A stretch of DNA of 40,957 nucleotides, from NCBI GenBank assembly GCA_040757475.1, contig JBFLWW010000007.1, positions 26,277-67,233 on the forward strand. The letters are read 5' to 3'. The stretch is from Nitrospirota bacterium (GTDB lineage: Bacteria; Nitrospirota; Thermodesulfovibrionia; Thermodesulfovibrionales; SM23-35). Of the stretch, positions 9,258 to 29,344 are shown in pieces (position 1 is the first letter of the stretch; each line of letters begins with the position of its first letter). The notes below the pieces were generated by a model. It had not been told where the DNA came from and ran no database searches. It worked only from the letters and a program-made list of their open reading frames with translations. Made by a program: the position numbers and the translations under genes.

Positions 9258-9351
9258 CAGTGACGAGTGACAAGTAACGAGTAACAAGTTAAAAACTAAA
9301 GACTTAAGACTTTTAAACTTCTCGTTACTCGTAACTCGTTACTTGTTACTG
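9258..9351. repeat. Inverted pair of 7-bp arrays (AGTRACR x4 / YGTWACT x4) forming a long hairpin
   Basis: AGTGACG AGTGACA AGTAACG AGTAACA (9259-9286) versus CGTTACT CGTAACT CGTTACT TGTTACT (9323-9350). Confidence 0.9.
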
Positions 9352-9370
9352 AATTAAGAGGGGAGATTGA

Positions 9371-11779
9371 ATGGTAAAGGTATCGGTTAGCATCGAAGAG
9401 GAGATGAAGGTCTCCTACCTTGACTATGCAATGAGCGTCATCATCGGCAGGGCACTCCCTGAGGCAAGAGATGGGTTAAAGCCTGTTCAGCGTAGAATAC
9501 TTTATGCAATGTTCAGAGAGGGCCTGCTCCCGGGAAAGAAGTACTCTAAGTGCGCAGGTGTTGTTGGTGAGGTTCTGAAGAAATACCATCCTCACGGTGA
9601 CACTGCAGTATATGATGCACTTGTAAGATTAGCCCAGGATTTTAATATGCGATATCCACTCGTGGATGGCCAGGGCAACTTTGGCTCGGTTGATGGGGAC
9701 CCACCTGCTGCATACAGGTATACCGAGTCGAGGCTTGCAAAGATTGCAGAGGAGCTTCTATCTGATATAGATAAGGACACAGTGGATTACATACCGAATT
9801 TTGATGAGACAACAGCGGAACCTGTTGTCCTGCCTTCGAGGATTCCGAATTTAATAATAAACGGCTCATCAGGTATTGCAGTTGGGATGGCTACAAACAT
9901 ACCTCCGCACAACCTCGGAGAGATTATAGATGGACTTGTAATGTTACTTGAAAATCCTGAGGCCAAGGTCAAAGACCTGATGTCTTTTATAAAAGGCCCT
10001 GATTTTCCAACAGGCGGTATCATCCATGGCACTGATGGGATTATTCAAGCATATAACGAAGGCAGGGGTCTTATAAAGATCAGGGCAAAGGCAAGAATAG
10101 AGCGAGGGTACAGGGGTGGAGAGGACATTATCATCACAGAACTGCCCTATCAGGTTAATAAGGCAAGACTTATTGAAAAGATTGCAGAGCTGATCAGGGG
10201 AAAGAAGATCGAGGGGATATCTGAACTCAGGGATGAGTCTGACAGGGACGGCATCAGGGTCGTGCTCGAACTTAAAAGGGGTGAGATGGCACAGGTCATC
10301 CTCAATAATCTGTATAAACATACACAGATGGAGACGACCTTCGGAGTTATCATGCTTGCCCTTGTCGGTGGCCAGCCCCGAATATTGGGATTAAGGAAAC
10401 TACTCAGCTATTTCCTCCAGCACAGGCGTGATGTGGTTCTCAGGAGAAGCCGTTTTGAACTAAGAAAGGCTGAGGAAAGGGCGCATATCTTGGAGGGGTT
10501 AAAGGTCAGCCTCGACCACCTTGATAAGATAATTGCGCTCATAAGAAGGTCAAAAACACCTGATGATGCAAAGCAGGGGTTAATGGATAACTATCCCCTC
10601 TCTGAGATTCAGGCACAGGCAATCCTCGATATGAAACTCCAGAGGCTAACAGGCCTTGAGAGGGAAAGGATAATAAAGGAGTATACGGATACATTAAAAG
10701 AGATAGAGAGGCTGAAGGCTATTCTCAGCAGTGAGGCACTTGTTTCCCAGATTATCAGAGATGAGCTCATCGAGATAAAGGCTAAATATGCTGATGAAAG
10801 AAGGACGGAGATTACCTCAGAGACAAAAGAGATTACAATTGAAGACCTGATTACAGAAGAGGAGATGGTGATAACAATATCACACCAGGGATATATCAAA
10901 AGGAATCCATTGAGTGCCTATCGTAGCCAGAGGCGGGGTGGTAAGGGCCTTATCGGCATGGAGACAAAGGAAGAGGATTTCGTTGAACAGCTTTTTATCG
11001 GCTCAACGCATGATTATATGCTCTTCTTCTCTAACCTCGGAAGACTATACTGGCTCAAGATATATCAGATACCTGAGGCAGGCAGGGCTGCTAAAGGGAA
11101 GGCATTAGTGAACCTGCTTACACTATCAGAAGGTGAAAGGATTACAACAGCGCTTCCTGTAAGGGATTTTAAAGAGGGGTTTCTTGTGATGTTTACAAAG
11201 AACGGCACAGTAAAAAAGACGGCACTTGAGGATTATAGCAATCCCCGTGGAAAGGGCATTATAGCCATCTCACTTGAGGAAGGCGATGAACTTATTGCAG
11301 TGGGGAAGACTGATGGAAGGAGTGATTTAATAATAGGCACAAGAGGCGGCCTCGCAATAAGATTCAATGAGGAGGATGTGCGTGATATGGGGCGTACCGC
11401 AAAAGGTGTTAGGGGCATCAGGCTTGTGAAAGGTGATGAGGTTGTCTCAGCAGAGGTTGCAGAGGAAAAAACTGCCCTCCTTACAGTTACAGAAAAAGGT
11501 CTTGGTAAAAGGTCTCGTATAGAGGACTATCCTGTTCAGGGTAGAGGTGGCAAAGGTGTTATCTCAATAAAACTTATAGACAAAGGTGGAAAAGCGGTTG
11601 GCCTCATACAGGTACGCGATGAAGACGAAGTCGTTATGATAACTAATTCAGGAAAGCTCATCCGCATGGCCGCAGGCAATATCTCACTTCACGGAAGAAA
11701 TACACAGGGCGTGAAACTCATGGATGTTGAGGATGGGGACAAGATTGTAAGCATAGGCCGAGTGGCAGAGAAGGATTAG
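9371..11779 (+). CDS. gyrA: DNA gyrase subunit A
   Basis: [23 protein letters not shown], GyrA box QRRGGKG, C-terminal pinwheel repeats. Confidence 0.99.
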
Positions 11780-12717
11780 ACATGGAACTCCACGATATCC
11801 CGGTCCTTTAATATGTAATCTTTCTGTACCTTCTGGCCTTCAAATCTTGCAGAGCCCCATATCCGAGCAAACTTAAGGGTAAAGATGAAATCTTTATGAA
11901 TAAGGCTGGCAAGGTCAAGTATTGTAGAGCCTGAGGGAATAGTGAAAGGTTTTGTCAGGTCAGGCTCTTTTTTGGGGGGTTTTGAGTAAACCCTGATGAT
12001 TCCTGAAATCTCAAATACAGCGTCTCTTAATTCCTCAAGGTTTTCCTTCTTCAAAGCTGATATTGAGATGCACCGGTAGAGATGCGAATATTTCTCCACG
12101 AGCCTGCCAAAGCATTCCTCTGCTTCCGGGAGGTCTCTTTTGTTTGCAGCTATAAGGGCCCTTTTGAACACAATTTTCCATCTTTCAAGCTGTTCGATAA
12201 GGAGCTCTGCCTGCACCTCAGGCTCCTCTGAGAGATCTATGACGAGCAGAAGTGCATCCGCACTCCTCAGTATGCCTGATACCCATCCGTCAGTTGCCTC
12301 ATTTCCTATCGGAGGTAAATCAACAAGCTGAAACTGAATATCCTCAAAAGGCATCATGCCTGGAAAAGGAGTGAGGGTTGAGATAGGATAATCAGCAATC
12401 ACAGGTGTGGCATTTGTCAGGCTTGCGAGCAGAGAGGATTTCCCTGAATTAGCAAACCCCACAAGTGCTATCTGGGCAGCTCCTTCTTTCTGCACAGTAT
12501 AAAGGTTTCCCCTGCCCCCTTTCTTTACTTTTTTTATGGCCTCTTCTCTTAGTAAGGATAGCCTTCTCCTTAAGTCAGCCCTGAGCTTGTCTGTACCCTT
12601 ATGCTTCGGGACTGTAGCTATCAGGTCTTCCATGGCAGAAATCTTTTCTGCAGGGGTTGATGCCTGTTTAAATCTCTTTTCAGCAGCAAAATATTCTGGT
12701 GGAAGATTTGTCGGCAT
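11776..12717 (-). CDS. DRG/OBG-like GTP-binding protein with C-terminal TGS domain
   Basis: [10 protein letters not shown]-terminal motif, [23 protein letters not shown]-like IRVYSK...ARIWG...[10 protein letters not shown]. Confidence 0.85.
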
Positions 12718-12749
12718 ATGATTACTTTTTTATCATAACAATAAACCTC

Positions 12750-12782
12750 TATCGGTATCCCTGGAAAACCAGCACCACTTCC
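12750..12782 (-). pseudogene. Probable sliver of rsmG (SAM-binding motif only)
   Basis: Minus strand reads GSGAGFPGIPI, the RsmG/GidB motif I, with no host gene around it. Confidence 0.5.
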
Positions 12783-12821
12783 AAATTTTTCGAGATTTCG
12801 ATGTTGTTCTTAAGCCCATAT

Positions 12822-13242
12822 CTATATGGGGTCATCGGTGTTGAGTTCAAGCCATAGAGGGTCCTTAACACATGTGCTTTTCCATGTGCAGATGGTGCAG
12901 TAGGATTTAACCCAATCTTTAAATATATCAGGCAGGGTTTCTTTTATCTTTAGCCAGTTCAGCTTCACACCAGGTTCTGTATTAAGTAATTCAAGTGCCT
13001 TTGAATCCATCTGTCTTATCTCATCCTCAGAGTTTTTTATTATAAAAGCACTTATTATCTTTAAGGTAGGGGCACTTTGCACATACATCATCTGCACCTT
13101 CAGAAACCTCTATTATTTCCCCATATTCAACCTTTTTGATGAGTTCATGGAGATTAATTATAAACTCAGGATTGTATCCTTCGCCTCTAAAGAAATGTAG
13201 ACATATAAGATGATGACCCCTGAATCTTATTACCCTATTCAT
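12822..13242 (-). pseudogene. DUF1284-like Cys/His-rich protein split by a frameshift in an A6 run (13033-13038)
   Basis: RGHHLICLHFFRGEGY and DDVCAKCP in one frame, DSKALELL...CTICTW...C in the next; removing one A joins them. Confidence 0.75.
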
Positions 13243-14143
13243 ACGGTCTGACGTATTTAGTCTCCCATAATCTTTCAGCCAATCTTTCGAGATATTCTCT
13301 ATTTTCTAACCTGTCCTTCCACCTCCATGGTATCCCTTCTACACCATAACAAGCTCCTGCAATCGCACCAGTCATCGCTCCAATAGTATCAGCATCTCCC
13401 CCCAAGCTTACAGCATAAACAACAGAGCTTTCAAAATCAGAATTAGATAAAAAAGAATAAATTGCTGCTGGAACAGAATTAAAGGCCTCAATACTGTTTC
13501 CAAGTTTTTTAATAACCTCATCTCTCTTGGGATTTTTATCTAATAAACTTTCTATAGCCTCCAATCTATCTTGATAAGGTTTAAGCTTGACAAATTTCTT
13601 CAGCTCCCTTAAAAACTCGTATTTATTTAAACTTGAAGGTTTTAAGTTTACGGCTAAAGCAGCTGCATAAGCTTCCAGGGCTGCTCCCTCCATTGCTAAT
13701 TCATGAGTATGGGTGATTCTGCTCGATTGATAAGCGACAGCACGAAGTCTCTCAGGATCATCACAATAGAAAAGCCCAATCGGCGCTATCCTCATTGCAG
13801 CTCCATTACCGAATGAACCACCTAAATATATCTCTCTGTCAAGCATCTCGTTCCATTTTCTGCCAGATTTTATCATTCTGAAGATTCTCGGAGGTCCCCA
13901 TCCATAACCACGCCATGGCTCTCTTTCATAATTCTCAATAAATCTCTCTGCCATATGCTCTCCATCAAAACCCGTACATTCTATAAGAGATTCAGCAACC
14001 CCTATCATCATTGCTGTGTCATCTGTATATCTCGGTCCAATGTCTCCTACTTCCAGAAAGTCAAAAAATCCTTCTCTTCGGGCTCCTAACGAATCCCCTG
14101 TTGCTGTTCCAATCAAACAACCAATAAATTTTGAAAGTTCCAT
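13235..14143 (-). CDS. ADP-ribosylglycohydrolase (DraG/ARH family)
   Basis: GDSLG, YTDDT, GNGAAMRIAP, GGDADTIGAMTGAIAGA. Confidence 0.92.
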   Translation of the reverse strand: MELSKFIGCLIGTATGDSLGARREGFFDFLEVGDIGPRYTDDTAMMIGVAESLIECTGFDGEHMAERFIENYEREPWRGYGWGPPRIFRMIKSGRKWNEMLDREIYLGGSFGNGAAMRIAPIGLFYCDDPERLRAVAYQSSRITHTHELAMEGAALEAYAAALAVNLKPSSLNKYEFLRELKKFVKLKPYQDRLEAIESLLDKNPKRDEVIKKLGNSIEAFNSVPAAIYSFLSNSDFESSVVYAVSLGGDADTIGAMTGAIAGACYGVEGIPWRWKDRLENREYLERLAERLWETKYVRPYE

Positions 14144-14206
14144 TTTTGCCTCTTTTGTTCGTTACCTCTGCTGACCCAGAAGTCTCAGAATGCGGACAGA
14201 TAAAAC

Positions 14207-14243
14207 ACAGGGGGGATGGAGATGCATCTCCATCCCCCCCTGT
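14207..14243 (-). terminator. Intrinsic terminator after hsp20 (30-bp perfect palindrome)
   Basis: GGGGGGATGGAGATG|CATCTCCATCCCCCC at 14210-14239, followed on the minus strand by TGTGTTTT. Confidence 0.75.
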
Positions 14244-14250
14244 TAGTCAA

Positions 14251-14709
14251 TCAGGATACTTCAACCTTTATCTCCTTAGGCTTTGCCTCTTCCTTTTTCG
14301 GAAGGGTTATTTCGAGTATCCCATTCTTGAAAGTGGCCTTTGCCTTCGAGCTGTCAACCTCGGAAGGAAGGGCTATCGTCCGTGTGAAACTCCCGTAGCT
14401 CATTTCGCGGGAATAGTAGTCTTCTTCCTTGATCTCTTCTTCTTTCTTGACCTCACCTTTTATTGTGAGGTTATTCTCGGTGATTTTAAGGTCAATGTTC
14501 TCCTTTTCGACGCCAGGGAGCTCAGCCTTGACCACAATCTCGTTCTTCCTGTCATACATGTCCACATTAGGGACAACAACACCAGGTTCGAATCTGGGCC
14601 ATAGACGCCTTCTCCTTGGAGCTGGCTCAAAGAACTCCTCGAAGAGCCTCTCCATATCCCTCCTCATGCTCTCGAGCTCTTTAAAGGGACTCCATTTTAC
14701 AATGGACAT
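14251..14709 (-). CDS. Small heat shock protein (Hsp20/alpha-crystallin)
   Basis: AELPGV, YGSFTRTIALP, ATFKNGILEITLPK; SD AGGAGG before ATG 14709. Confidence 0.95.
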   Translation of the reverse strand: MSIVKWSPFKELESMRRDMERLFEEFFEPAPRRRRLWPRFEPGVVVPNVDMYDRKNEIVVKAELPGVEKENIDLKITENNLTIKGEVKKEEEIKEEDYYSREMSYGSFTRTIALPSEVDSSKAKATFKNGILEITLPKKEEAKPKEIKVEVS

Positions 14710-14747
14710 ATCTGACACCTCCTTTCTGCTTTCAGGCCTTCGGCCTG

Positions 14748-14801
14748 AGTTAATAGGTCATTGGTTATTAACTCATTGACTAATGACTATTGACCATTGA
14801 C
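14748..14801. repeat. 7-bp array (CATTGAC TAATGAC TATTGAC CATTGAC) plus a degenerate inverted arm, overlapping the clpB 3' end
   Basis: Units at 14774-14801; opposite arm GTTAATA GGTCATT GGTTATT. Confidence 0.75.
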
Positions 14802-17428
14802 TCCTCAGCAGTCACCTCCTTTTTAAACTTGATTTTATCTTCTTCAAAATCAACTTCAACTGTATCTCCTTCCTTGAATGTCGTGTCAAGGATTTTTAGT
14901 GAAAGGGGATTCAGTATCTCTCTCTGTAACGCCCTCTTTAATGGCCTCGCGCCATAAACAGGGTCAAAGCCTATCTCAGCAAAATATTCTTTGGCGCTAT
15001 CTGTTAGTTTTATATCAACATTCTTCTCCCTGATATATTTTTTCATTCTATTTACCTGTATCTCCACAATCTGTTTCAGGAGCTCCATGGTCAGAGGGTT
15101 AAAGACGATAATCTCATCAACTCTGTTCAGAAATTCCGGCCTGAAAAATGCCTTTAGGTCTTCCATAATCCTTTCCTTCAATTCAGCATTGTTACTGACC
15201 CAGTAAGCAGCAGGTCTCCTTACTCTTTCTTCGAGCATCTCGTGTATATGCGTGCTCCCTATATTTGATGTCATAATAACCACTGTATTTCTGAAATCAA
15301 CTGTCCTCCCATGGCTGTCAGTAAGCCGTCCATCATCGAGTAATTGAAGCAGAAGATTGAATACCTCTGGATGGGCCTTCTCGACCTCGTCAAACAGGAT
15401 TACAGAATAGGGCTTTCTCCTTACAGCCTCGGTGAGCTGGCCACCTTCTTCATAGCCTATATATCCTGGAGGTGCACCTATAAGCCTCGATACAGTATGC
15501 CGTTCCTGATATTCAGACATATCTATCCTTATCATTGCGTTTTCATCATCAAACAGAAATTCTGCAAGTGCCCTTGCCAGCTCTGTCTTCCCAACACCTG
15601 TAGGTCCTAAAAAGATAAAAGAGCCGATGGGTCTGTTGGGGTCTTGAATTCCTGCACGTGCCCTCCTGACCGCATTCGATACAGCCTCAATCGCCTCATT
15701 CTGTCCAACAACCCTTTGCTTTAACCGCTCATCCATGTGGAGCAGTTTCTGTACCTCACCCTCGAGCATCCGCGATACAGGTATTCCTGTCCATTTAGAA
15801 ACAACCTCTGCAATATCCTCTTCGTCTACCTCTTCCTTCAGCATCTTCCTTTTCTTTTGTGTCTCAAAAAGTCTTTTATTTTCCTCTTCGAGGGCCTTCT
15901 GAAGTTCGAGTAATCTTCCATATCTGAGTTCTGCTGCCTTTGTCAGGTCTCCTTCGCGCTCTGCCCTCTCTGACTCTATCTTTGTCTTCTCAATCTGCTC
16001 TTTATGTTCTCGTATCTTCGCTATAATTTCTTTTTCACTCATCCACTGAACCCTTAATTCATCACGTCTCACCTGAAGCTCAGCCATCTCCTTTATTATC
16101 TTTTCAAGCTTCTCTTTAGAATCTTTTGAATCCTCTCTCATCACTGCCTGCTTTTCTATCTCATGCTGCCTGAGTTTTCTTTCGATCTCATCGAGCTCTA
16201 CAGGCATACTGTCTATCTCCATCCTGAGTTTTGATGCAGACTCATCAATCAGGTCTATTGCCTTATCGGGGAGGAATCTGTCTGTTATATATCTGTTTGA
16301 GAGCACTGCTGCAGATATTAATGCTGAGTCCTTAATCTTGACACCATGATGAACCTCGTATCTCTCCTTAAGACCACGCAGGATTGATATTGTGTCTTCA
16401 ACAGTCGGCTCCTTGATAAGGACAGGCTGGAACCTTCTTTCGAGTGCAGGGTCTTTTTCTATATGTTTTCTGTATTCATCAATGGTTGTTGCGCCAACAC
16501 ACCTCAGGTCTCCCTTTGCGAGGGCTGGTTTAAGCATGTTCGATGCATCAATAGCACCCTCTGCTGCACCAGCACCAACAAGGGTGTGAAGCTCATCTAT
16601 GAATAAAATAACCTTTCCCTCTGCCTGTTCAATATCCTTCAGAACTGCCTTTAATCTCTCTTCAAATTCTCCCCTGAATTTCGAACCAGCAACAATTGCA
16701 CCCATGTCGAGTGCAACTACTTTTTTATCCTTTAATGTCTCAGGCACATCACCTGCAACTATCCTTTGTGCAAGCCCCTCTGCAATAGCGGTCTTACCAA
16801 CACCAGGCTCACCAATAAGCACAGGATTATTCTTTGTCCTCCTCGAAAGTACCTGTATTATCCTCCTTATCTCGTCATCCCTCCCAATCACAGGGTCAAG
16901 CTTTCCTTTTCTTGCAAGTTCTGTCAGGTCACGGCTGTATCTCTTAAGTGCCTGATATTTCTCTTCAGGTGTAGGGTCTATCACACGCTGTGCACCTCTT
17001 ATCTCTCTCATGGCTGAAAGGACTCTATCAGCAGTCGCCCCATATCTTTTTAAGAGATCTGAACATGGCCCACCTATTGATATAAGTGCAATAAGAAGAT
17101 GTTCAACACTCACATATTCATCTGTGAGGTGTTCTGCCTCTTTTGTGGCATTTTCGAATACCTCTCTCATCCTTGGCGATATATAAATCTGTCCTAATGG
17201 TGTCGCACCAATAACCTTTGGGAATTTCTCTATCGCCTCTTCAACATCCTGCTGTAGTGCCTTTATATTAATCCCAAGCCTCTTAAGTATCTGAGAGGCC
17301 ACACCCTCATCATCTTCGAGTAGTGCCCAGAGCAGATGCTCAGCATCAAGCTGCTGATTGCCCTTTCTCTCTGCAAGCCTCTGTGCTGTCTGTATTGCCT
17401 CCTGACTTTTTATAGTAAGTTTATCCAT
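14780..17428 (-). CDS. clpB: Chaperone ClpB
   Basis: Two AAA+ modules ([16 protein letters not shown]), long coiled-coil middle domain with [16 protein letters not shown]. Confidence 0.97.
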
Positions 17429-17429
17429 A

Positions 17430-17777
17430 TTACTCCTCCATTAATACCTTTCTGAGCCTCTCAGCAAAATCCTTTCTTATGTCATCTTCAAGCATATTCA
17501 TCATCTCTTCAATCTCTTTCTGCATTGCCTCGAGCCTGTGTTTCATCCGGAGTATTACCTCGACTCCTGCCTTGTTTACTCCGAGTTCTCTTGTGAGCCT
17601 GAGAATCATACCGAGCCTCTCTACATCTTCTTCTGAATAAAGCCTCAGCCTCTTTGTTCGCCTGGGCGTTACAAGACCTTCTCTCTCGTATAACCTTAGG
17701 GTCTGTGGATGAACATTCAGCATCTCAGCCACAACACTTATCATATACAAAGGTTGTTTTTTATCTTTTATAGCCAT
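17430..17777 (-). CDS. hspR: MerR-family heat shock repressor HspR
   Basis: [33 protein letters not shown]; between dnaJ and clpB; HAIR-like operator upstream. Confidence 0.88.
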
Positions 17778-18868
17778 TATCTTCTCACCATCCCCTTTCG
17801 AGGGTCTTCCCTGTAAAGGGCCTCTATATCTTTTATAGTCTCTTTTCCCTTAGCTGTAATATCCTTTGGCACAACTATCTTTATATCTATATACTGGTTT
17901 CCCCTCACCCCGGTCTTTGGTGCTGGAAAACCCTTTCCTGAGAGCTTAAACCTCTGTCCTCCCTGTGTTCCGGGAGGGATAGTCATCGCTGCAATCCCAT
18001 CTATTGTTGGAACCTCTACCTTTGCTCCGAGTGCTGCCTCGCCAAAGGTTACAGGGAGGTCGAGATAAATGTCATCCCCCTTTCTTGTAAATATTGGATG
18101 TTGTTTTACAGTAATCTCTATATAGAGGTCTCCTGAGGGACCACTGCCTATACCAGCACCCCCCATACCCCTGAGCTTGACCCTCGAACCTGTATCAACC
18201 CCAGCAGGTATCTTTACTTTCACTGTTTCTGTCTGTAAAGTCTTCCCCCTTCCTCCACAGGAATGGCAGACCCTTGTTACCTTTCTTCCTGTTCCTCTAC
18301 AATCTGGACACAACTGTGACATCCTGAAGAACCCTTTTGAGGTCTTTATGCTTCCTGTACCCTTACATATGCCACATATCTGTGATGACTCTGCCCCTGA
18401 ACCACTACAAGACCTGCATGTGACTTCTCTATTAAATGTGAGTGGTCTTGTTACGCCGGAGAATGCCTCCTCTAAAGAAAGTTCAATGCCCATGGCCATA
18501 TCAGGCCCCTTTGCATGTGCAGTCTCGGGTCTTGCCTTTGTGCCGAAGAGGTCTGAGAAGACATCTCTGAAATCGCCAAAATCAAAGGTGTCTCTGAAAT
18601 CATAGGTCCTAAACCCTTCAAACCATGGGCCTCTACCTTCAAATGGAGAATGGCCAAACTGGTCGTATTCGGCCTTCTTCTTTTGGTCGCTTAAGACCTC
18701 GTATGCCTCATTCAGCTCTTTGAACTTCTGCTCTGCAACCTTGTTCCCCGGGTTCAGGTCAGGGTGATATTTACGCGCAAGCTTCCTATACGCCTTCTTT
18801 ATCTCATCCTGAGAGGCATTCTTGCTTACTCCGAGTATCTCATAATAATCCTTCACACCAGCAGCCAC
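17777..18868 (-). CDS. dnaJ: Chaperone DnaJ
   Basis: J domain with HPD, G/F region, four CxxCxGxG repeats. Confidence 0.95.
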
Positions 18869-18889
18869 CTTTCCTCCTTAGTTATTCAT

Positions 18890-18919
18890 ATAATATCATT
18901 TGAGTAGACTTTTGTCAAG
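18890..18919 (-). promoter_or_regulatory. Sigma70 promoter overlapped by a HAIR-like HspR operator
   Basis: Minus strand TTGACA-17 nt-TATTAT; CTTGACA-N7-ACTCAAA (18899-18919) resembles HAIR CTTGAGT-N7-ACTCAAG. Confidence 0.85.
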
Positions 18920-19001
18920 TATTTTGTTATGATAAGCATAAATAAAAAGCTCTAAGGATTGCCACGTGGCTGAGGCACCTTAATCCTGATTTAAGATTCA
19001 T

Positions 19002-19811
19002 CTAATATACAATCCTTTCCAGAAAAAGGCCGTTTGCAGGAGCAGTTGGCCCAGCGAGCCTCCTGTTATGTGATTTTAGAATCTCCTCTATCCTGTCTGC
19101 AGGTATCTTCCCTCTTCCAATCTCAACAAGGGTGCCTGCGATATTCCTGACCATATGCCTGAGGAAACCATTCGCCTCTATTCTTATCTTTATGAATTCG
19201 CCTTTTATGCTCGCAGTCATAAAATCAAGCCTCTCAAACCTTTCTATACTCAGAGAAAAAATCTCCCTGACAGGATTCCTTGAACTACTGCCTGCACCTC
19301 TAAAAGAAGAGAAATCATGTGTGCCAATGAGTACCTCTCCTGCCTTTTTCATAGATTTCATTTCAAGAGGTTGCTGAACCATCCATGTATATCTGTGAAG
19401 AAATGCTGAGGATTCTCTCTGGTTCGCAATGATATAGAAGTAGGTTTTTTTGACAGCATCATGCCTTGGATGAAATGAATCATCAACCTCAGATACCTTA
19501 AGAACCTTGATATCCTGAGGTAGGAGTGCATTCAGCGCCCTTTTTATCGTCTCAGGGGTAAGCCTCGATTCTGTCCTGAATGCAGCCACCTGTCCGAGTG
19601 CGTGCACACCCGCATCTGTTCTGCTTGCACCGATAACCTTTGCATCTTCACCGGTTATTTTCTTAATCGTCTCCTCAAGAACCCCCTGGATTGTAGGAAC
19701 AGTCCTTTGACTTCTAACTTCTGACTTCTCACTTTTGACTTCTGATCTTTGCGCCTGCCAGCCCTGATAGGCTGTGCCGTCATATTCAAGGAGAAGCTTA
19801 ATCTTTTTCAT
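19002..19811 (-). CDS. truA: tRNA pseudouridine(38-40) synthase with a 14-aa repeat-derived insertion
   Basis: YDGTAYQGWQ, ASRTDAGVHA, GFLRHMVR, GPTAPANGLFL. Confidence 0.97.
   Translation of the reverse strand: MKKIKLLLEYDGTAYQGWQAQRSEVKSEKSEVRSQRTVPTIQGVLEETIKKITGEDAKVIGASRTDAGVHALGQVAAFRTESRLTPETIKRALNALLPQDIKVLKVSEVDDSFHPRHDAVKKTYFYIIANQRESSAFLHRYTWMVQQPLEMKSMKKAGEVLIGTHDFSSFRGAGSSSRNPVREIFSLSIERFERLDFMTASIKGEFIKIRIEANGFLRHMVRNIAGTLVEIGRGKIPADRIEEILKSHNRRLAGPTAPANGLFLERIVY
19706..19747. repeat. Six 7-bp units in frame within truA
   Basis: TTTGACT TCTAACT TCTGACT TCTCACT TTTGACT TCTGATC = 42 nt, encoding RSEVKSEKSEVRSQ. Confidence 0.9.
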
Positions 19812-19886
19812 TTGTCATGATTTTCATTTAAACCGGTTTTTAAGTCAAGTGCTCTTAGTTTCTGGTAAAATATTAAGGGAGATAAA

Positions 19887-20957
19887 ATGATAGACATTGA
19901 AGCCCTCACCTTCCAGATTAAGAGAAACTGCAATATCTCTGATGCAAAATACTGGGGGACTTATTCTATATGTGGCCTCCTGCTTAGACTCAGGGAGCTA
20001 TATCGTACTGAAAAGGGCATAAAGCCGTGGGAAAGGATTCCACAAAAAGAGATTGGTGAGTGGATATCAGAAAGAGAAGCCCTGTGGCGAGAGCTTGAAG
20101 ATAAAGACTTTGGCGATATTATTATTGAGGGGAATGTATATGGCCCATTCGAGGGCGAAAAGATAAATGCTACATTAGAGAAAGAAAACCTTATCTATGG
20201 TGCTGGCTATGGTACCCATATGAAGCCTTCTTTTTTCCTTGCAGACCTTATATCTAAAGAAACAGTGGAAGGCTATGATATTTATATGGCTGGCAGAGAA
20301 TATGTTAGAGACCTATCAGATTATCCGGCAATGTTACAGGGCAAAACTATCTTAGCGAGGAGAGACACGACAAGATTACTCCTGTGGGGGAAATTCGAGG
20401 AATTAAGACTTAGGGGGTTGAAAGGGGCTCTTGCATTCGCATTTTCGAGATACGGCATTACACCTGATGAAGAACCATCAGAGGATATTGACAGGCTGAT
20501 TTCTCTGATTGCATGTTCTGAGGTAGAAATATACATCCATCATGAGCTGGGTGAAGGGTTTGAAGGAGAAAGATTTGGAGGTGAATGGAAGGTATTTCTG
20601 ACACATCTATCATGCAGCAGGGCAGAACTCTTTGCCCGCGGGGTTAAAGACCTCCTCTCAGATACCTCTGAAAAAGGCATGCTGAGGCACATCATTGAAA
20701 ACAGGAAAGAAGGTTCGCTCGGTTTTTATATCGTATTCCTCGGAGGTTACAGGAGGCTTCTATTTCCTGAAATCCTGAGCACATTCGAGAGGTTTGTTGA
20801 GACAGGAGACTGGGGGCCTATTGAGGATGCCCGAAAGGCTGGTCACAGAAAGGCCGAAGAATATGTAGAAAGACTGATTTCGATATACAGGAACGAACCT
20901 GATAAGACACAGATTTCAGAACGAATCGAGGCTGAAATACTCAGGGGATTACTTTAA
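19887..20957 (+). CDS. Conserved hypothetical protein (resembles the Sfum_1244 family)
   Basis: 356-aa ORF with SD; NCNISDA...YSICGLLLRLR N-terminus and HHELGE motif; family call is from recall. Confidence 0.7.
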   Translation: MIDIEALTFQIKRNCNISDAKYWGTYSICGLLLRLRELYRTEKGIKPWERIPQKEIGEWISEREALWRELEDKDFGDIIIEGNVYGPFEGEKINATLEKENLIYGAGYGTHMKPSFFLADLISKETVEGYDIYMAGREYVRDLSDYPAMLQGKTILARRDTTRLLLWGKFEELRLRGLKGALAFAFSRYGITPDEEPSEDIDRLISLIACSEVEIYIHHELGEGFEGERFGGEWKVFLTHLSCSRAELFARGVKDLLSDTSEKGMLRHIIENRKEGSLGFYIVFLGGYRRLLFPEILSTFERFVETGDWGPIEDARKAGHRKAEEYVERLISIYRNEPDKTQISERIEAEILRGLL

Positions 20958-22223
20958 GTCTTCAGGAGCGATATTATTGACAAAGATGTCGACCAGCTCA
21001 GGGTCAAGCTGGGTTCCTGCATTGCGTTTCAGTTCTTCTATCGCCTCGTCAAAGCTGACACACAATCTATATGAAGTACCGCTCATCATTGTGTCAAATG
21101 CCTCTGCTATTGCTATTATCCTTGCCTCAAGGGGGATGGCCTCTCCCATGAGTTTTGTTGGATAGCCAGAACCGTCATATCTTTCATGATGATAGAGGAT
21201 AAAGGGAGCGGTATCAGCATAAAAATTAATAGGCCTGATCATCTCATATCCGATAACAGGATGTTTCATAAACTCCTCCTTGTTGAAATAATCCTCAGGT
21301 CTTATCTTCAAAAATCCTACATCGTGTAGTAGACATGCGAAATACAACCTTCTTTTTTCTTCATCAGACATATTAATCGCCCTTGCCATTATATTGCTAT
21401 ACCTTGCGACCCTCTTTGAATGCCCTCTTTTTTCAGGGATGTGATAATCAATAGCCTCGACGAGTATATCTGTGAGATATATCTCGTAATTCTTTTCATC
21501 CTCATAAAATTTTGCCCTGTCAATTGCTATAGCAGCCTGATCAGCAAAGTAGGATATGATTTCTACATCCTCCGGGGTGAATGGACCAGAGGTCTTGTTC
21601 AACAGCTCGAGCACTCCGATAACTCCAGTGCTTATTCTTAATGGCACGCAGAGTATGGATCGGGTTTCATACCCTGTCAGCCCATCTATCATAGAGCTGA
21701 ACCGTTTATCATGTTTGACATCATTCACAATGAGGGGTTCTCCTCTTTGCACAACCCAGCCTGCTATCCCCTCGGTTTTCGGCATTGAGACGCCAATCAG
21801 CTGCTTGCTGCCTCCTCCGCGCACAATTTTAAAGACAAGTTTGTCTTTATCAATTAACATGATAGAACCTGCATCAGCACTGGCAATAACAGCTGCATGC
21901 CCCAATATCTTCTCTAACAGGATATCCCCGTATTTTTCCTCCCTTATATCCAGTGTTAAATTCAGCATGCGGTCAAGCTTGTTGGTGTAAGTCTCTATCT
22001 CTTCTATTGCCTGCTTCGAAATCTTATTTGATAAATAAAGACCTGTAAGGATTAAAAGCGCAATTATTGAGAGCATAGCTACAATGGAAGGGGTCCTGAT
22101 AAAGTCCCATGCATAATATAAGAAACGGACTACCAGAAAAAGCAATACATAGACAATAAAGGTTACGATATAATTGAGTATCCTGATTTTTTCCTCAATA
22201 TCTTTTATTACTTCTTTTCTCAT
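20949..22223 (-). CDS. Membrane-anchored GAF + HD-GYP protein (putative c-di-GMP phosphodiesterase)
   Basis: Two N-terminal TM helices, GAF (GIAGWV, SILCVPL), HSKRV, LLHDVG, HHERYDGSGYP. Confidence 0.88.
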   Translation of the reverse strand: MRKEVIKDIEEKIRILNYIVTFIVYVLLFLVVRFLYYAWDFIRTPSIVAMLSIIALLILTGLYLSNKISKQAIEEIETYTNKLDRMLNLTLDIREEKYGDILLEKILGHAAVIASADAGSIMLIDKDKLVFKIVRGGGSKQLIGVSMPKTEGIAGWVVQRGEPLIVNDVKHDKRFSSMIDGLTGYETRSILCVPLRISTGVIGVLELLNKTSGPFTPEDVEIISYFADQAAIAIDRAKFYEDEKNYEIYLTDILVEAIDYHIPEKRGHSKRVARYSNIMARAINMSDEEKRRLYFACLLHDVGFLKIRPEDYFNKEEFMKHPVIGYEMIRPINFYADTAPFILYHHERYDGSGYPTKLMGEAIPLEARIIAIAEAFDTMMSGTSYRLCVSFDEAIEELKRNAGTQLDPELVDIFVNNIAPEDLK

Positions 22224-22295
22224 ACAGCACCTCCCTTAAAAAGCTTATCATATTTTCAGCATTATTAAAACAATTTTTAAAAATTTCAAATTATC

Positions 22296-22324
22296 TTGAA
22301 TAATCCACAGCTTAAGGTTAGAAT
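22296..22324 (+). promoter_or_regulatory. Sigma70 promoter of hisD, 9 nt before the ATG
   Basis: TTGAAT-17 nt-TAGAAT, no clear SD. Confidence 0.6.
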
Positions 22325-22333
22325 TAGCTGAGC

Positions 22334-23632
22334 ATGAGAATTGTAAAGAGCAATAAAGACATGCTGACCTTCTATAAAATACTGAAGGGGCGATCCATCA
22401 ACAGCCCGGAGATAGAAAAAAATGTAAAGACAATACTTGACGATGTAAGGAGAAATGGTGACAGGGCACTCCTAAAATACACGAGGGCCTTTGATTTCCA
22501 GAAGGCAAAAGAATTGAAAATAAAGCCTAATGAGATATCAAGGTATGCAGGAAAGGCGGATAGAAAAGTAGTAAGGGCACTTAAACTCTCTGCAAAAAGG
22601 ATAAGGGCATTTCATGAGATGCAGAAAGAGGAATCCTGGTTCGTCAGAGATCCAGAGTATCGAAGATTTTCCCCTCACACTTTCCTCGGGCAGGTGATAA
22701 GGCCGATTGAGAGGGTTGGTGTATATGTGCCTGGAGGCAAGGCATCATATCCATCAACAGTATTGATGAATGTTATACCTGCACAGGTGGCTGGTGTTAA
22801 AGAAATTGCCCTTTGTGTGCCAACCCCGGAAGGTGAGATTAATCCGTATGTGATGGCTGCAATAAAATTGCTCGGAGTTAAAGAGGTCTACAGGATTGGT
22901 GGTGCACAGGCGATCGGAGCAATGGCATATGGGACAGAGATGATAAAGAGGGTTGATAAGATTGTGGGGCCAGGCAATATCTATGTCGCAACAGCAAAAA
23001 GGCTTGTCTTTGGAGAGGTGGATATTGATATAATTGCAGGACCGAGCGAGATCCTGATTATTGCAGATGATTCAGCAAACCCGGCATTTGTTGCAGCAGA
23101 TCTGCTCAGCCAGGCAGAGCATGACGAGCTTGCATTATCAGTATTAATCACCGATTCTAAGAGACTGGCAGATGCTGTTGATAAAGAGCTAATAGGACAA
23201 CTCGCAAAGCTAAAGAGGAGAGAGATTGTGAGGAAGTCCATTGATAACTATGGAGCGATAATAATCACAAAGGATATAAAAGATGCTGTTGAATTATCTA
23301 ATCATATCGCACCTGAGCACCTCGAAGTTATGACCAAAAACCCTATGGATGTTTTACCCATGATTAAAAATGCTGGTGCAATATTCTTAGGAGAGTGGAC
23401 CCCTGAGCCATTAGGTGATTACTCAGCAGGTCCGAACCATACCCTTCCAACAGGAGGGACTGCGAGATTTTCATCTCCACTTGGAGTCTATGATTTTGTC
23501 AAGCGCTCAAGTCTTATATCATTTACAAAGGAAGGCTTTATAAAACTCGCAGGGACTGTCGAGGCCCTCGCAGACATTGAGGGCTTAGAGGCTCATGGAA
23601 ATACAATAAGAATAAGAAAGGAGAAGAAATAA
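22334..23632 (+). CDS. hisD: Histidinol dehydrogenase
   Basis: GVYVPGG, GPGNIYV, AGPSE, SQAEHD, APEHLE, GPNHTLPT. Confidence 0.98.
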   Translation: MRIVKSNKDMLTFYKILKGRSINSPEIEKNVKTILDDVRRNGDRALLKYTRAFDFQKAKELKIKPNEISRYAGKADRKVVRALKLSAKRIRAFHEMQKEESWFVRDPEYRRFSPHTFLGQVIRPIERVGVYVPGGKASYPSTVLMNVIPAQVAGVKEIALCVPTPEGEINPYVMAAIKLLGVKEVYRIGGAQAIGAMAYGTEMIKRVDKIVGPGNIYVATAKRLVFGEVDIDIIAGPSEILIIADDSANPAFVAADLLSQAEHDELALSVLITDSKRLADAVDKELIGQLAKLKRREIVRKSIDNYGAIIITKDIKDAVELSNHIAPEHLEVMTKNPMDVLPMIKNAGAIFLGEWTPEPLGDYSAGPNHTLPTGGTARFSSPLGVYDFVKRSSLISFTKEGFIKLAGTVEALADIEGLEAHGNTIRIRKEKK

Positions 23633-24508
23633 ATGGAGAAAATCTTAAAAATCGGCCTGCCAAAGGGGAGTCTTCAGGAATCAACATTAAAGCTCTTCAG
23701 GAAGGCAGGTTATCATATCACTGTCTCAAGTCGTTCGTATTATCCTGCCTTTAACGATCCTGAGATAGAGTCCATGCTCATAAGGGCACAGGAGATGGCA
23801 GGGTATGTTGAGGCCGGGATATTAGACTGTGGACTCACAGGCAGGGACTGGATATTGGAGCAGAACGCTGATGTGCATGAGGTCGCCGAATTAATATATG
23901 CTAAAGAAGGCCTCAGGCTAGTAAAATGGGTCATTGCGGTACCGAATGACTCAAAGATAAAGACGATTAAAGACCTTGAAGGGAAGCGTATTGCAACAGA
24001 GCTCGTCGGGTTTACAAAGAGATACCTGAAATCAAAAGGCATAAAGGCTGAGGTTGATTTCTCATGGGGGGCAACAGAGGTTAAACCGCCACACCTCGCT
24101 GATGCGATTGTAGAGATTACTGAGACTGGTGCATCTTTAAAGGCAAATAACCTTAGGATTATTGAGACAATCCTTCAGTCAAGTACAAGGTTTATCGCAA
24201 ACAAAAAGGCGTGGCGTGACAGGTGGAAGAGACAGAAGATGGAGAATATCGTGATGCTTCTTAAGGGAGCACTTGCTGCTGAAGAAAAGGTCGGGCTTAA
24301 AATGAATGTGCCAATGAAGTCTCTGAAACGGGTGATGAGCCTACTTTCTGCTATGCATTCCCCAACAATATCACCCCTTTCTGATAAGGGATGGTATGCA
24401 CTTGAGGTTGTGATTGATGAGAAGATTGTGAGGGACATTATACCAAAGCTCAAGATGGCAGGTGCATCAGGAATAGTGGAGTATCAGCTCAATAAGGTGA
24501 TACCATGA
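23633..24508 (+). CDS. hisG: ATP phosphoribosyltransferase (long form)
   Basis: GLPKGSL, GATE...[15 protein letters not shown]-terminal regulatory domain with SPTIS. Confidence 0.96.
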
Positions 24509-24600
24509 TCGAGCGAAATAATCTCTTTTGCTACATTAAAAGGTGAACTCAGAGCTAACGGGAAGGACTAACTCCTGACCCAGAAAGGAGAACTGAACAG

Positions 24601-25704
24601 TTGGATATTAAAAAACTTGTAAGGCCCAATATCCATTCTTTATCAGCCTATAATGCAAAAGAGATTCCATGCAAGGTAAAGCTCGATGCGAATGAGAGTC
24701 CTTACCCAACATTCAGCATTCAGCATTCAGCGGTCAGCACTAAAAGGATTTTTCAGAGACTAAATCGTTATCCTGACCCAGAGGCTAAGGCACTAAAAAA
24801 AATAATCTCAAAGAATCTTGAACTAAGACCTGATAATATTCTCGTAGGTAATGGGTCTGATGAGCTGATTTATTATCTGATAACAACATTTGGTGGCCCT
24901 GTTCTTTATCCGATACCTACTTTCTCAATGTACGGAATTATTGCACAGGCTATCGGCGAAAAGAGAATTGAGATTCCACTTGATAAAGAATTTGACCTTG
25001 ATATTGAAAAGATTCTTAAGGCAATAAAAAAATACAAGCCGCGATTAATATTTCTAAGCTCCCCCAATAACCCTACAGGAAACTGTTTTTCTTCAGGAAA
25101 AATTCTAAGGATAATTGAATCAACCTCGTCACTCGTTGTGGTTGACGAGGCATATCAGCCATTTTCGAGTGAAAAAGGTTTTCTGCCGTTACTCAAAGAC
25201 TACAAGAACCTTATGATAATGAGGACATTGAGTAAGATTGGACTCGCAGGATTAAGGGTAGGCTTCCTCATAGCTGATGCAGGGATAGTCAATGAAGTGA
25301 ATAAGGTCAGACTCCCATTCAATCTCAATTCCCTTTCTCAGGCAGTTGCAATAGAGGCATTAAAGAATAGAAAGACAATGAAGTCATACATGAAGTCAAT
25401 CATCTCTGAGAGAGAGAGGCTTTTTAATGAACTGGCAGGGGTAAACAGCATAAAGCCATATCCATCAGAGGCGAATTTTATATTATTTAAAACAGAAGAT
25501 TCTGATAGAATCTATAAAGGACTTTTGAAAAAAGGCGTGCTCGTGAGGAATATGAAAGGGGTTATGGATGGCTGTCTCAGGGTCACAGTTGGAACGCCAG
25601 AGGAGAATACAGTTTTTATAAGAGCCCTCAGACAGGTGTTAGGGGAGAAAGGCAGTGCGGATCCCATTTGTTGTCCCGACCTCACGGAGTATTGCACCAC
25701 TTGA
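24601..25704 (+). CDS. hisC: Histidinol-phosphate aminotransferase with an aberrant C-terminal tail
   Basis: [46 protein letters not shown]. Confidence 0.95.
24711..24738 (+). repeat. Four 7-bp units inside hisC
   Basis: ATTCAGC ATTCAGC ATTCAGC GGTCAGC, encoding FSIQHSAVS. Confidence 0.8.
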
Positions 25705-25866
25705 TACCATTACATCAGGCATCCTGAAGGAGCCTCCTATCTCAATAAGTTCACCCCTCGAGACAATAACCTCCTTGCCTTTTGATAATGTATTCAAACA
25801 TAACAGTACTGCTGCTGACTGCTGCTGCATTGTTATTTACGATGAGGGCATCCTCTTTTCATTCAT
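25666..25866 (-). pseudogene. selA: Internal remnant of selenocysteine synthase
   Basis: [13 protein letters not shown] / [33 protein letters not shown]...REVGTTN, interrupted by a 10-bp duplication (25808-25827); rest of the gene absent. Confidence 0.9.
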
Positions 25867-25943
25867 GCGTTAAATTATATCATAAGTGCGCAGGTGGGAA
25901 CTCTGTTTCCCCCTGTGCCCTATATTATGCTAAAATAACCTTT

Positions 25944-27344
25944 GTGATATACAACATTTACGAAGAGTGCGGGGTCTTCGGGGTATACGGGCACCCGGAG
26001 GCAGCAAACCTTACATACCTTGGATTATACGCCCTCCAGCACAGAGGTCAGGAAGGAGCAGGTATCTGTTCCTCAGATGGGAAACAGCTTCAAGTTGAAA
26101 AATCCATGGGACTCGTTGCTGATATCTTCAGCGAAAAAAGATTAAGGAGACTTTTAGGCCATATAGCAATAGGACATAATCGCTATTCTACAGCCGGTAG
26201 CAGTGTCCTGAAGAATGTCCAGCCTATAGTTGCAAATTTTGCCCTTGGCTCCCTCGCAATAGCACATAATGGAAACCTTGTTAATGCAGTAGAACTCAGG
26301 ACATCACTCGAAGCAGAAGGCGCTATATTCCAGTCCACTTCAGATAGTGAGGTCATTGTGCACCTCATAGCCCATTCAAAGGGGAATGACTTTTATGAAA
26401 GGGTTATTCATGCGCTTAAACAGGTCAGCGGTGCCTTCAGCCTGCTCATACTGGGTGAGAAAGAGCTTATAGCAGTGAGGGACCCCTATGGTGTGAGGCC
26501 CCTCTGTCTCGGAGAAGTAGACGGGGCTTATGTTGTTGCCTCAGAGACCTGCGCATTTGATTTAATAAATGCTACTTACCTACGTGATATAGAGCCAGGA
26601 GAGATGCTTATAATAAACGAACATGGCCTTAAATCTCTGAAGGCGCTCATCAGTCCGAGAAAGGCATTCTGTATATTCGAGTTCATTTATTTCTCAAGAC
26701 CTGACAGCTATATCTTTGGTGGATTGAATGTGAATGAGATAAGGAAGGAATTTGGAAGACAGCTTGCGAGGGAGGCCAATGTAGGTGCAGACCTTGTAAT
26801 ACCTGTACCTGACTCAGGTGTACCAGCGGCACTCGGTTTCTCAGAAGTGAGCAACATCCCGTTTGATTTTGGCCTTATAAGAAACCACTATGCTGGAAGG
26901 ACATTCATAGAGCCCAAACAGAGCATAAGACACTTTGGTGTTAAGATAAAGCTTAACCCTGTAAGGAGACTTCTTGAGGGCAAAAGGTTGGTTGTAATAG
27001 ATGATTCGATTGTCAGAGGCACTACAAGCAAAAAGATAATCAAGATGCTCAGGGAAAGAGGAGGTGCAAGAGAGGTACACCTGAAGATAAGCTCCCCGCC
27101 GACCATTGGCCCTTGTTTCTACGGTATAGACACACCTACAAGGCGGGAGCTTATTGCATCCACGCACCTGATTGAAGAGATCAGGAAATATATAACTGCG
27201 GATTCTCTTACTTATTTAAGCCTCGAAGGACTCAAGAAGATAGTCCCGGATTCTCATAATTACTGTGCTGCCTGCTTTGACAATGACTACCCGATAAGTT
27301 TTCCGAGTGAACGCCTTGAACAGATGGAATTTTTCTTCCGTTAG
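25944..27344 (+). CDS. purF: Amidophosphoribosyltransferase (start likely GTG 25944)
   Basis: Short propeptide then [39 protein letters not shown]. Confidence 0.97.
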
Positions 27345-27345
27345 A

Positions 27346-27482
27346 TGTTAGAACAGAATAAGGATAGGAGATCGTCTTGTCGCTCATTCTCGCCCCGCAC
27401 CATCTCATGGTGCGGTTTTGAATTCTGTTGGAGACAGAATTCAAAACCGCTCCCAAGACGATCTCCTATCCTTTTGTTAGAA
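27346..27482. mobile_element. MITE-like nested palindromic element or structured RNA
   Basis: 20-bp outer IR (27360-27379/27454-27473), 17-bp inner IR (27412-27428/27434-27450), flanking TGTTAGAA direct repeats. Confidence 0.6.
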
Positions 27483-27501
27483 AGGAAGTATCTTAATAAG
27501 G

Positions 27502-28629: not shown

Positions 28630-29344
28630 TTTATTAATCTTCTTATTATTCTGTCTATTCCCAGCCAGTGCACTGGCAGATGTGATCGTCCATGACATGA
28701 TTGTACTCAAAGGCGAGGAGGTTATGCTTACGGCTGAGACAAAGGGTAAGTTCCTAAGCAAAGGTGGTGAGGTTGTAGAGTTCTTTGTTAATGGGAAATC
28801 CATTGGTAAGACCCTTTCAGGCGGTGATGGTTTTGCATTCAAGGAGTTTATCCCGCTAAAGACGGGTATGTATCGAATAACTGTAAAGTCAGGTGGGGAT
28901 GAAGATAACGGATTATTTCTTTCATTGAAAAAGGGTGGCAGGATTATCTTTGTTGATGTTGAAGGAAGCCTATTAGAGGGACTATTTTCAAAGAAGCCGA
29001 AGCACGGCAGCCAGAAGGCAATAGAGAAGATAGCGAAGAGGTTTCCAGTTCTCTTTCTCCAGACAAGCCTTCTCAGTGTAAAGGCCATCAAGGTATGGCT
29101 GAAAAAGAATGGATTCATAGAGTTACCTGTGGTTCCATGGAGACGGGGAGCAATATTTGATGAGATAAATGAAAAAGGGTTAAAGATCAAGGCAATAATT
29201 GGGAGTGCAAATGTAATCGAATCTGCAAAGGAATACAAACCAAAGGCGTTTAGCTTCGAAGAGACAGACGATGCAGAGGAAGTAAAGGACTGGGAGGAGA
29301 TCAGGGAAAGGCTGATTGACATAACTACCTCTAAAGATAGATAA
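28580..29344 (+). CDS. Hypothetical exported protein with a degenerate HAD-like domain (start uncertain)
   Basis: Signal-like segment ending ALA-D, beta-rich domain, then IIFVDVEGSL. Confidence 0.6.
   Translation: METERQSLKLVDCSIFDLLIFLLFCLFPASALADVIVHDMIVLKGEEVMLTAETKGKFLSKGGEVVEFFVNGKSIGKTLSGGDGFAFKEFIPLKTGMYRITVKSGGDEDNGLFLSLKKGGRIIFVDVEGSLLEGLFSKKPKHGSQKAIEKIAKRFPVLFLQTSLLSVKAIKVWLKKNGFIELPVVPWRRGAIFDEINEKGLKIKAIIGSANVIESAKEYKPKAFSFEETDDAEEVKDWEEIRERLIDITTSKDR

Follow-up and report, generated by a model that had tools for sequence, protein, structure and literature searches.

Heptanucleotides are the commonest class of long simple sequence repeats (SSRs) in many prokaryotes, and slippage has been proposed for them (Mrazek et al. 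2007, summarised in PMC4679880). In Escherichia coli K1, the O-acetyltransferase gene neuO of the CUS-3 prophage yields a full-length protein only when its number of 7-nt units is divisible by three (PMC13001214). In Geobacter metallireducens, 49 elements made of four GGGACCG heptanucleotides each are situated both inside and between genes (PMC2700814), and direct repeats of TAACTGA, with 2-6 units, occur in marine Beggiatoaceae, cyanobacteria and Bacteroidetes (MacGregor 2015, PMC4679880). Small non-autonomous repeats that have been fused in frame into housekeeping genes, where they form an extra peptide, are also on record (review PMC3184786). We found no paper joining heptanucleotide repeats with Nitrospirota, in a search that did not cover subscription papers. 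Here we describe a six-unit heptamer array lying in frame within truA, the gene for tRNA pseudouridine(38-40) synthase, in a stretch of 40,957 nucleotides (the window) from a groundwater Nitrospirota bacterium of the order Thermodesulfovibrionales. The array is probably a tolerated passenger, and the loop that holds it is a hot spot for heptamer arrays across the order. In what follows, G000 is the genome under study, a 1.74-Mb assembly, and f1 is its own family within the order.

A six-unit heptamer array in the truA reading frame

The array and the gene around it comprise the following features:

19706..19747, minus strand: six-unit heptamer array, predicted to be translated as part of RSEVKSEKSEVRSQ (sequence, Tandem Repeats Finder (TRF), lag identity, shuffles, absence in relatives)
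19695..19748, minus strand: 18-residue loop RSEVKSEKSEVRSQRTVP, from GWQAQ to TIQ, codons 22-39 (alignments with relatives)
19747..19751, minus strand: CAAAG, upstream copy of a 5-nt direct repeat at the insert junction (read from the sequence)
19705..19709, minus strand: CAAAG, downstream copy of the 5-nt junction repeat (read from the sequence)
19002..19811, minus strand: truA coding sequence (CDS), 269 aa, tRNA pseudouridine(38-40) synthase, intact (list of open reading frames (ORFs), PF01416, PDB matches, invariant columns)

On the plus strand, 19706-19747 reads TTTGACT TCTAACT TCTGACT TCTCACT TTTGACT TCTGATC, and the coding (minus) strand, from 19747 down to 19706, reads GATCAGA AGTCAAA AGTGAGA AGTCAGA AGTTAGA AGTCAAA, with 2, 1, 1, 0, 1 and 1 mismatches per unit to the coding-strand consensus AGTCAGA. 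TRF reports the segment 19708-19745 with a period of 7, 5.4 copies, 80% matches and a score of 55. The self-identity of the array rises to 0.74 at lag 7 and to 0.79 at lag 14, and stays at 0.21-0.28 at the remaining lags from 1 to 13. The highest lag-7 count in any 42-nt segment of truA is 27 of 35 matches; 5000 codon shuffles of the gene gave at most 24, and 5000 base shuffles at most 22. Adjacent units are never identical, and a run of lag-7 identity extends over 6 nt at most.

The array begins 64 nt into the CDS and occupies codons 22-35 of 269; the peptide it encodes is hydrophilic and has 14 residues with a 7-residue period (SEVKSEK SEVRSQ). Because CAAAG stands at both junctions, the borders of the array are movable within 5 nt; the count of exactly six units is based on the net length difference, the terminal units being the most degenerate. 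The junction repeat itself may be a microhomology, a target duplication or a piece of the array. An inverted partner of the array was sought in 19500-19950 and none was found there, the mRNA shows no folding signal (z -0.25; the centroid leaves the array unpaired), and there is no match in Rfam.

The product of the 269-aa ORF is matched by the PF01416 profile at an E-value of 5.2e-45 in two stretches, corresponding to both halves of the fold, and by the PDB entries 1dj0, 2nqp and 1vs3 at about 1e-41, spanning residues 3-268. All 50 invariant columns of a 52-sequence TruA alignment are retained, among them R64, T65, D66 and H70 of the catalytic motif RTDAGVH. When aligned with solved TruA sequences, the insert sits in a gap separating conserved blocks: RSEVKSEKSEVRSQ faces 14 gap positions in E. 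coli TruA (1dj0, E 1e-41) and 13 in that of T. thermophilus (1vs3).

An insertion relative to close relatives

The distance from GWQxQ to T[IL]Q is four residues in 28 of the 29 relatives first compared and 18 in the window's TruA, a net gain of 42 nt. Within f1, all 24 relatives read have 4 or 5 residues at the site (two have 5), 52 of the 53 genomes having truA are insert-free, and the remaining full-length matches of the family, among the matches listed for the order, are all 765 nt long. In a large collection of proteins the closest is P0002 (255 aa), whose residues at the site are KRGT and which is identical at 222/251 positions outside the loop. In a loop-masked tree (FastTree, 69 rows, L057 omitted as a duplicate of L005, arbitrarily rooted on an f9 row, support values unread) the window's truA is sister to P0002, deep within f1; compared with the age of the family, the gain of the array is therefore recent.

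In the same-genus genome G001, which is 83% complete, truA was not found, and the contig loses synteny just upstream of the hisC-like gene. A whole-TruA scan of genome contigs gave 26 loci, all spanning at most 765 nt and none of insert length; an alignment scan of metagenomes with the loop region, in which the generic TruA pattern dominated, kept 80 loci, all spanning 108-135 nt and none with a 14-residue insert; and a protein search limited to the window's loop returned, among 5 candidates, only its own protein.

These results bear out the observation that had been made from the letters of the window alone. The sequence-only reading had counted exactly six heptamers (42 nt, 14 aa) in frame at 19706..19747, as borne out by the sequence, by TRF, by the shuffles and by the net difference in length, and had attributed the excess over the roughly four residues usual in TruA to them, which agrees with the relatives and with P0002. 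It had also held that a loop of similar length without 7-nt periodicity, shared by close and distant orthologs, would speak against it; the ortholog alignment shows no such pattern, as the close orthologs have four residues and most long loops of distant ones are 7-nt periodic.

A recurrent site of heptamer arrays across the order

We found truA in 293 of the 317 genomes of the order, with 150 of 306 matches listed; 27 of those listed did not span 765, 762 or 759 nt, and 26 of these were fetched together with 10 of normal length from the same genera. Nearly all variation in TruA length across the alignment falls in the loop between GWQxQ and the helix. Among the matches listed, 22 of the 27 odd-length genes have loops of 10-27 residues at this site (13 in f7, seven in f12, one each in f5 and f10), and G229 (f12) is one extra, so that at least 23 long-loop relatives are found in four other families, 21 of them in f7 and f12. 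In 16 of the 22 long loops the best self-match is at lag 7, and the lag-7 identity is 0.54-0.74 in 12; the long loops of f5 and f10 show no 7-nt periodicity. The unit varies from lineage to lineage:

CAGATT[GT]: G030, G064-G066, G076, G103
CAGTCAG: G048
CAGCCGT-like: G237, G246, G229
GTTCAGA: G243
GAGTTAA: G077
CAGAAGT, the unit of the window's array: G100, G101

Loops built from CAGATT[GT] measure 42 nt in G064, G066 and G075 and 63 nt in G065, G030, G103 and G076, i.e. they lie exactly three units apart. Thus, the GWQxQ loop of TruA is a hot spot for heptamer arrays across the order.

The content of the loop is, moreover, decoupled from the phylogeny of the gene. The TruA proteins of G063 and G065, with loops of 4 and 21 residues respectively, are identical at 228/251 positions outside the loop. 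P0110 is identical to the proteins of G233 and G234 (L062, L063) at 242/251 positions outside the loop, with SSEVRSQKSEVGSHRTVL in the former and an unrelated 27-residue loop in the latter. Conversely, P0109 and P0110 are only 82% identical to each other and have the loop in common at 17/18 positions. This loop has the same length as that of the window (18 residues) and is identical to it at 13/18 positions, the non-periodic RTV tail included, while the proteins are 62-65% identical to the window's TruA outside the loop; the RTV tail is absent from the close relatives of both P0109/P0110 and the window's TruA. Related peptides are seen in P0125, where SKVRSQKSEVR lies within a 36-residue loop, and in P0123, with KSVKSRESGVKSQKNVI. 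A protein search limited to the loop of P0110 returned 7 proteins.

The sharpest replacement of a loop that we saw concerns L062, L063, P0110 and P0121, which look nearly identical outside the loop (P0121 as judged by eye), and whose loops of 27, 27, 18 and 17 residues are partly unrelated in content.

Constant length between samples

Contigs of four sequencing runs were compared over 9000-28999 of the window: X1 is the likely source run, and X2, X3 and X4 are non-source runs from three studies. In X1 a 10.5-kb contig crosses the truA array with 0 gaps. The contigs of X2 and X3, which come from two studies, represent a strain with a divergence of about 1% (161 and 163 differing letters over 15.5 kb) and bridge the array as well. 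In X2 all 16 gap letters are explained by indels elsewhere (13033, 14157, 14215-14229, 19811 and 22238); in X3, 4 of 16 gap letters are listed, none within the array. In X4, from the third study, a 374-nt contig covers 19414-19787 with 0 gaps.

The reading frame is likewise constant between genomes: all 24 long-loop truA genes read from DNA, i.e. that of the window and those of 23 relatives, are open through the loop. Two truA genes are split (G018 and G008), with breaks near residues 82-94 and 124-130, away from the loop.

The same comparison brought up differences elsewhere in the window. In the X2/X3 strain 1327 other letters stand in place of the 132 nt of 24505-24636, which separate hisG from the hisC-like gene. 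Close by, the contigs of the likely source run break at 24708/24710, at a neighbouring heptamer array. At 25808-25909 the X2/X3 strain is without one copy of a 10-nt direct repeat (ACTGCTGCTG, present twice in the window), has TTAAA added behind 25869 and lacks one base at 25909; the net change of -6 nt lies near the start of a glutamine amidotransferase-like ORF (25782-27344).

Strand, frame and the genome-wide repeat pool

Because 7 and 3 have no common factor, an array of at least three units with a stop in any register closes every frame, whereas a stop-free array encodes one cyclic 7-residue peptide, here SQKSEVR, in all frames. On the plus strand, five of the six units of the truA array contain TGA or TAA, and stops fall in all three frames (1, 2 and 2); on the coding strand of the array two of the three frames are open. 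The earlier expectations that only multiples of three units keep the frame and that the opposite strand is laden with stops are therefore upheld, the former by arithmetic and by the related loops of 42 and 63 nt, the latter by this count.

In G000, TRF gives 625 period-7 rows among 1553, which merge into 604 arrays with 185 canonical units and make up 1.0% of the assembly. An open frame of at least 150 aa spans 60% of these arrays, as opposed to 85% of random positions; heptamer arrays are thus depleted in genes yet far from excluded from them. Inside open frames of at least 150 aa lie 301 of the 604, an upper estimate of the intragenic arrays, because the open frames were not matched individually to protein families; in 225 of these 301 the unit contains a stop on just one of the strands, and in 251 the consensus of the strand being read is free of stops. 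Together with the three-unit step between related loops, the one-strand stops and the depletion support the further suggestion of the earlier reading that arrays entering genes are filtered by selection.

The units of the truA array (AGTGAGA, AGTTAGA, AGTCAAA) are variants of a large AGAAGTN family of G000, and all five AGTCAGA-unit arrays of this genome are sense-oriented within long open frames. Two arrays on contig C9 of G000 match the truA array with 89.7% identity over 39 nt; these two (48281-48319 and 48508-48546) are identical to each other over their 39 nt and stand 227 nt apart. The commonest unit pair genome-wide in G000 is AGTGACG/ACTCGTC. Across the order, the pattern (AGAAGTN)x4, with at most 2 mismatches, is present in 137 of the 317 genomes. 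It has 49 matches in G000 against 1 for the reversed control, and the reversed pattern has 0-2 matches in nearly all genomes. Its presence by family is:

f1 37/56; f7 41/68; f12 18/20; f2 22/54
f3 0/11; f5 0/12; f4 1/22; f11 1/21

A cluster of substitutions beside the loop

One further feature of the truA CDS bears on where the array came from:

19638..19694, minus strand: codons 40-58 behind the loop, where substitutions relative to the closest relative are clustered and likeness to f7/f12 is locally raised

Of the 29 differences from P0002, eight lie inside 20 of the 251 positions, beside the loop. In a nucleotide mosaic comparison with 47 windows of 20 codons, the best identity to an f1 gene is 0.77-0.93 over codons 59-268 (at least 0.80 in all windows but one) and 0.75-0.88 over codons 11-68, where the best identity to an f7 or f12 gene is 0.70-0.83. 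In 5 of the 47 windows, all of them within codons 11-68, an f7 or f12 gene is at least as similar as the best f1 gene. When the mosaic test was restricted to strict family consensus sites, three informative sites fell in the patch, and one of the three was of the outside type.

Origin and role of the truA array

We consider it likely that the truA array is a tolerated passenger, i.e. an AGAAGTN array that lies in frame, was gained after the split from the closest relative and is now stable. This is favoured because E. coli, T. thermophilus and 52 of 53 f1 genomes have a short loop, and because length and content change freely between near-identical proteins while the peptide is polar; related bacteria carry other repeats at the same spot, so that the array looks like a passenger, unlike a genetic switch. 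As judged by sequence comparison, it most likely does nothing for the enzyme. The array lies in the loop joining the GWQxQ strand to the first TruA helix, and its survival there would depend on four conditions: that the strand read is stop-free in the frame used, the other strand being closed in all frames; that units are added in net multiples of three; that the encoded peptide is polar; and that the site is a loop tolerant of changes in length. The sequences directly show the array, its absence from close relatives, the constraints of frame and strand, its constancy in other samples and the repeated arrays at this loop in other families. The open frame suggests that the array is translated, and the surface exposure of the loop, like its distance from the tRNA and the dimer contact, is judged from the alignment to solved TruA sequences; neutrality and the mode of origin are what we infer from these comparisons. 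Some points weigh against this proposal. Contigs drop rare length variants, and slippage at a low level could thus escape notice; the persistence of the hot spot over a whole order, with its rapid replacement of content, could also signify an importance of the loop; and a near-identical 18-residue loop in distant TruA proteins, together with the cluster of changes flanking the window's loop, is unexplained by a simple gain in place.

With respect to function, the sequence-only reading had added that gain or loss of units could turn the gene on or off, single-unit slippage flipping truA in and out of frame as in neuO. The location of a heptanucleotide array in the 5' part of the CDS and a frame kept only by multiples of three units would suit such a phase-variable switch, and neuO operates in exactly this way (PMC13001214). 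However, no two adjacent units are alike in full, and the lag-7 runs end at 6 nt; the length is unchanged in the three non-source runs from three studies; the long truA loops are in frame in 24/24 cases, with the split genes broken elsewhere, whereas neuO is out of frame in 42/64 genomes; and truA belongs to the housekeeping genes of tRNA modification, not to the contingency genes, with dnaJ, clpB, his genes and the dnaA-gyrA region as its neighbours. On these grounds this part of the earlier reading is not supported, and we hold a switch to be very improbable. A repeat-encoded extension recruited for tRNA contact, dimer contact or stability, with its variability reflecting selection, would account for the persistence of long loops in most f7 and many f12 genes read and for their consistently polar and charged peptides; and since bacterial TruA dimerises via loop regions on top of the core (PMC12710931), a role of the insert in the dimer contact is conceivable. 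A functional extension is nonetheless decidedly unlikely, given that close relatives alternate between 4 and 21 residues (G063 and G065), that content is replaced wholesale between near-identical proteins, that 52 of the 53 f1 genomes with truA manage without the insert, and that the loop is short in TruA of E. coli and T. thermophilus. As for a mis-assembly or binning error at a repeat, the contigs of the likely source run do break at another heptamer array (24708/24710), but in X1 the truA array lies without a gap inside the contig of 10.5 kb, the other samples (X2, X3 and X4) have independent contigs with an array of equal length, and the reading frame is retained, which leaves an artefact with a practically negligible probability.

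Regarding origin, the passenger array may have arisen in place or may have been imported by recombination, and both readings stand. In the former case it would have been gained from the AGAAGTN repeat pool of G000 itself, by slippage or insertion; as this pool is common to many genomes and is combined with a filter of selection, the same unit could arise repeatedly. In the latter case, the loop and about 20 codons behind it would have been copied by homologous recombination from an f7/f12-like relative that already had the array. We entertain this tentatively, as a possibility that falls short of being the probable course; it concerns origin alone and is compatible with the array being a passenger. 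It would explain why P0109 and P0110, at 62-65% identity outside the loop, have a loop of the same length with 13/18 identical residues including RTV, why loops travel independently of the gene (P0110 against G233/G234, and P0110 against P0109), why 8 of the 29 differences from P0002 crowd into 20 loop-adjacent positions, and why all five windows favouring f7/f12 fall within codons 11-68. Against it, the donor was not found, the best flank identity to f7/f12 being 0.78-0.83; the strict consensus sites are of the outside type in only 1/3; AGAAGTN is common in f1, f7 and f12, so that independent recurrence is possible; and all three frames of a heptamer array yield the identical cyclic peptide. 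A more far-reaching proposal, which we regard as unlikely, is that the TruA loop is a site-specific hypervariable cassette, whose arrays are written, replaced and passed between lineages by an active process. This would involve copying with other arrays as templates, or frequent recombination of short patches among species that live together, simple slippage being insufficient. If true, the process would seed hundreds of in-frame arrays in core genes and constitute a new route to loop diversity in conserved proteins.

Genomic setting and other arrays of the window

The surroundings of truA comprise dnaA, dnaN, gyrB, gyrA, clpB, a MerR-type regulator, dnaJ, truA itself, a DUF6866 protein and hisD/hisG, and the locus is ordinary chromosome close to the replication origin. 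The sequencing runs containing the stretch are groundwater, biofilm and hot-spring metagenomes, and no RNA run is among those listed as containing it.

Two more arrays of the window lie in frame in genes. One, at 24710-24739, consists of CATTCAG x3 and degenerate units in a hisC-like class I/II aminotransferase gene (24601-25704, PF00155) and encodes FSIQHSAVS, in a loop of variable length and sequence among 13 orthologs. The other, at 32109-32140, is of the GAGTCAA type and encodes ESGVKSQESRV in a transglutaminase-like protein (31164-32618), where it directly precedes the Transglut_core domain; the linker is 0-44 residues longer in relatives, and in the same-genus G001, whose protein is 93% identical, the length is equal and there are substitutions. 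In the gyrB-gyrA spacer (9259-9350) two arrays of opposite polarity, of the AGTAACG type and then of the CTCGTTA type, form a heptamer-built hairpin, which is a multicopy element, since contigs from many other places of the same genomes align there. The remaining period-7 arrays of the window lie in spacers or gene ends: 1083-1194 after the RNA cyclase gene, 5680-5750 in the dnaA-dnaN spacer, 14766-14802 across the clpB stop and 39665-39735 before a DegT-type aminotransferase gene.

Significance and comparison with known systems

While 7-base repeats are usually regarded as intergenic or as switches of contingency genes, here one appears to be read as protein in a core tRNA-modifying enzyme. 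The same TruA loop hosts other arrays in at least two families of the order, and their content evolves more quickly than the remainder of the gene and without regard to it. The loops of 4, 10, 14, 18, 21 and 27 residues, with their three-unit steps, provide a natural series for the study of repeat entry, selection and loop tolerance. For annotators, this is a warning that unusual loops of low complexity in Nitrospirota proteins derive from repeats.

The Rickettsia palindromic elements (RPEs) are palindromes of 105-146 nt. The truA array is distinct from them in that it has neither an inverted partner nor a fold signal, i.e. it lacks the inverted arms of an RPE-like hairpin. With neuO it has in common a translated tandem 7-nt repeat in the 5' part of the CDS (PMC13001214). 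The neuO repeat, however, consists of 3-53 near-perfect AAGACTC units, which vary in number between and within strains, with 42 of 64 genomes out of frame (PMC13001214), whereas the truA array has six degenerate units, is constant in length in all samples seen and lies in a housekeeping gene. The Geobacter elements (PMC2700814) are built from one GC-rich unit and have been proposed as regulatory RNA elements; here there are 185 units in 604 arrays, and the array in truA is predicted to be read as protein.

A parallel in terms of strand is presented by the TAACTGA repeats, for which the strand with stops in all frames is likewise kept out of genes and 'reverse' copies are tolerated in ORFs, mainly at their periphery (PMC4679880). 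Those repeats differ in having one dominant unit, mostly placed just upstream of start codons, and no recurrent hot spot inside a conserved enzyme is described for them (PMC4679880). The 185 canonical units of G000 and the intragenic position of the truA array set it apart from such TAACTGA-type or short tandemly repeated repetitive (STRR)-type elements. The survey of Mrazek et al., in its summarised form, stressed units of 3n length in genes, while in the present case 7-nt arrays stand in frame in core genes. The truA array belongs with these known repeats; what goes beyond their descriptions is the recurrence of arrays in one loop of one core enzyme across an order, their three-unit steps and the decoupling of the loop from the gene that carries it.

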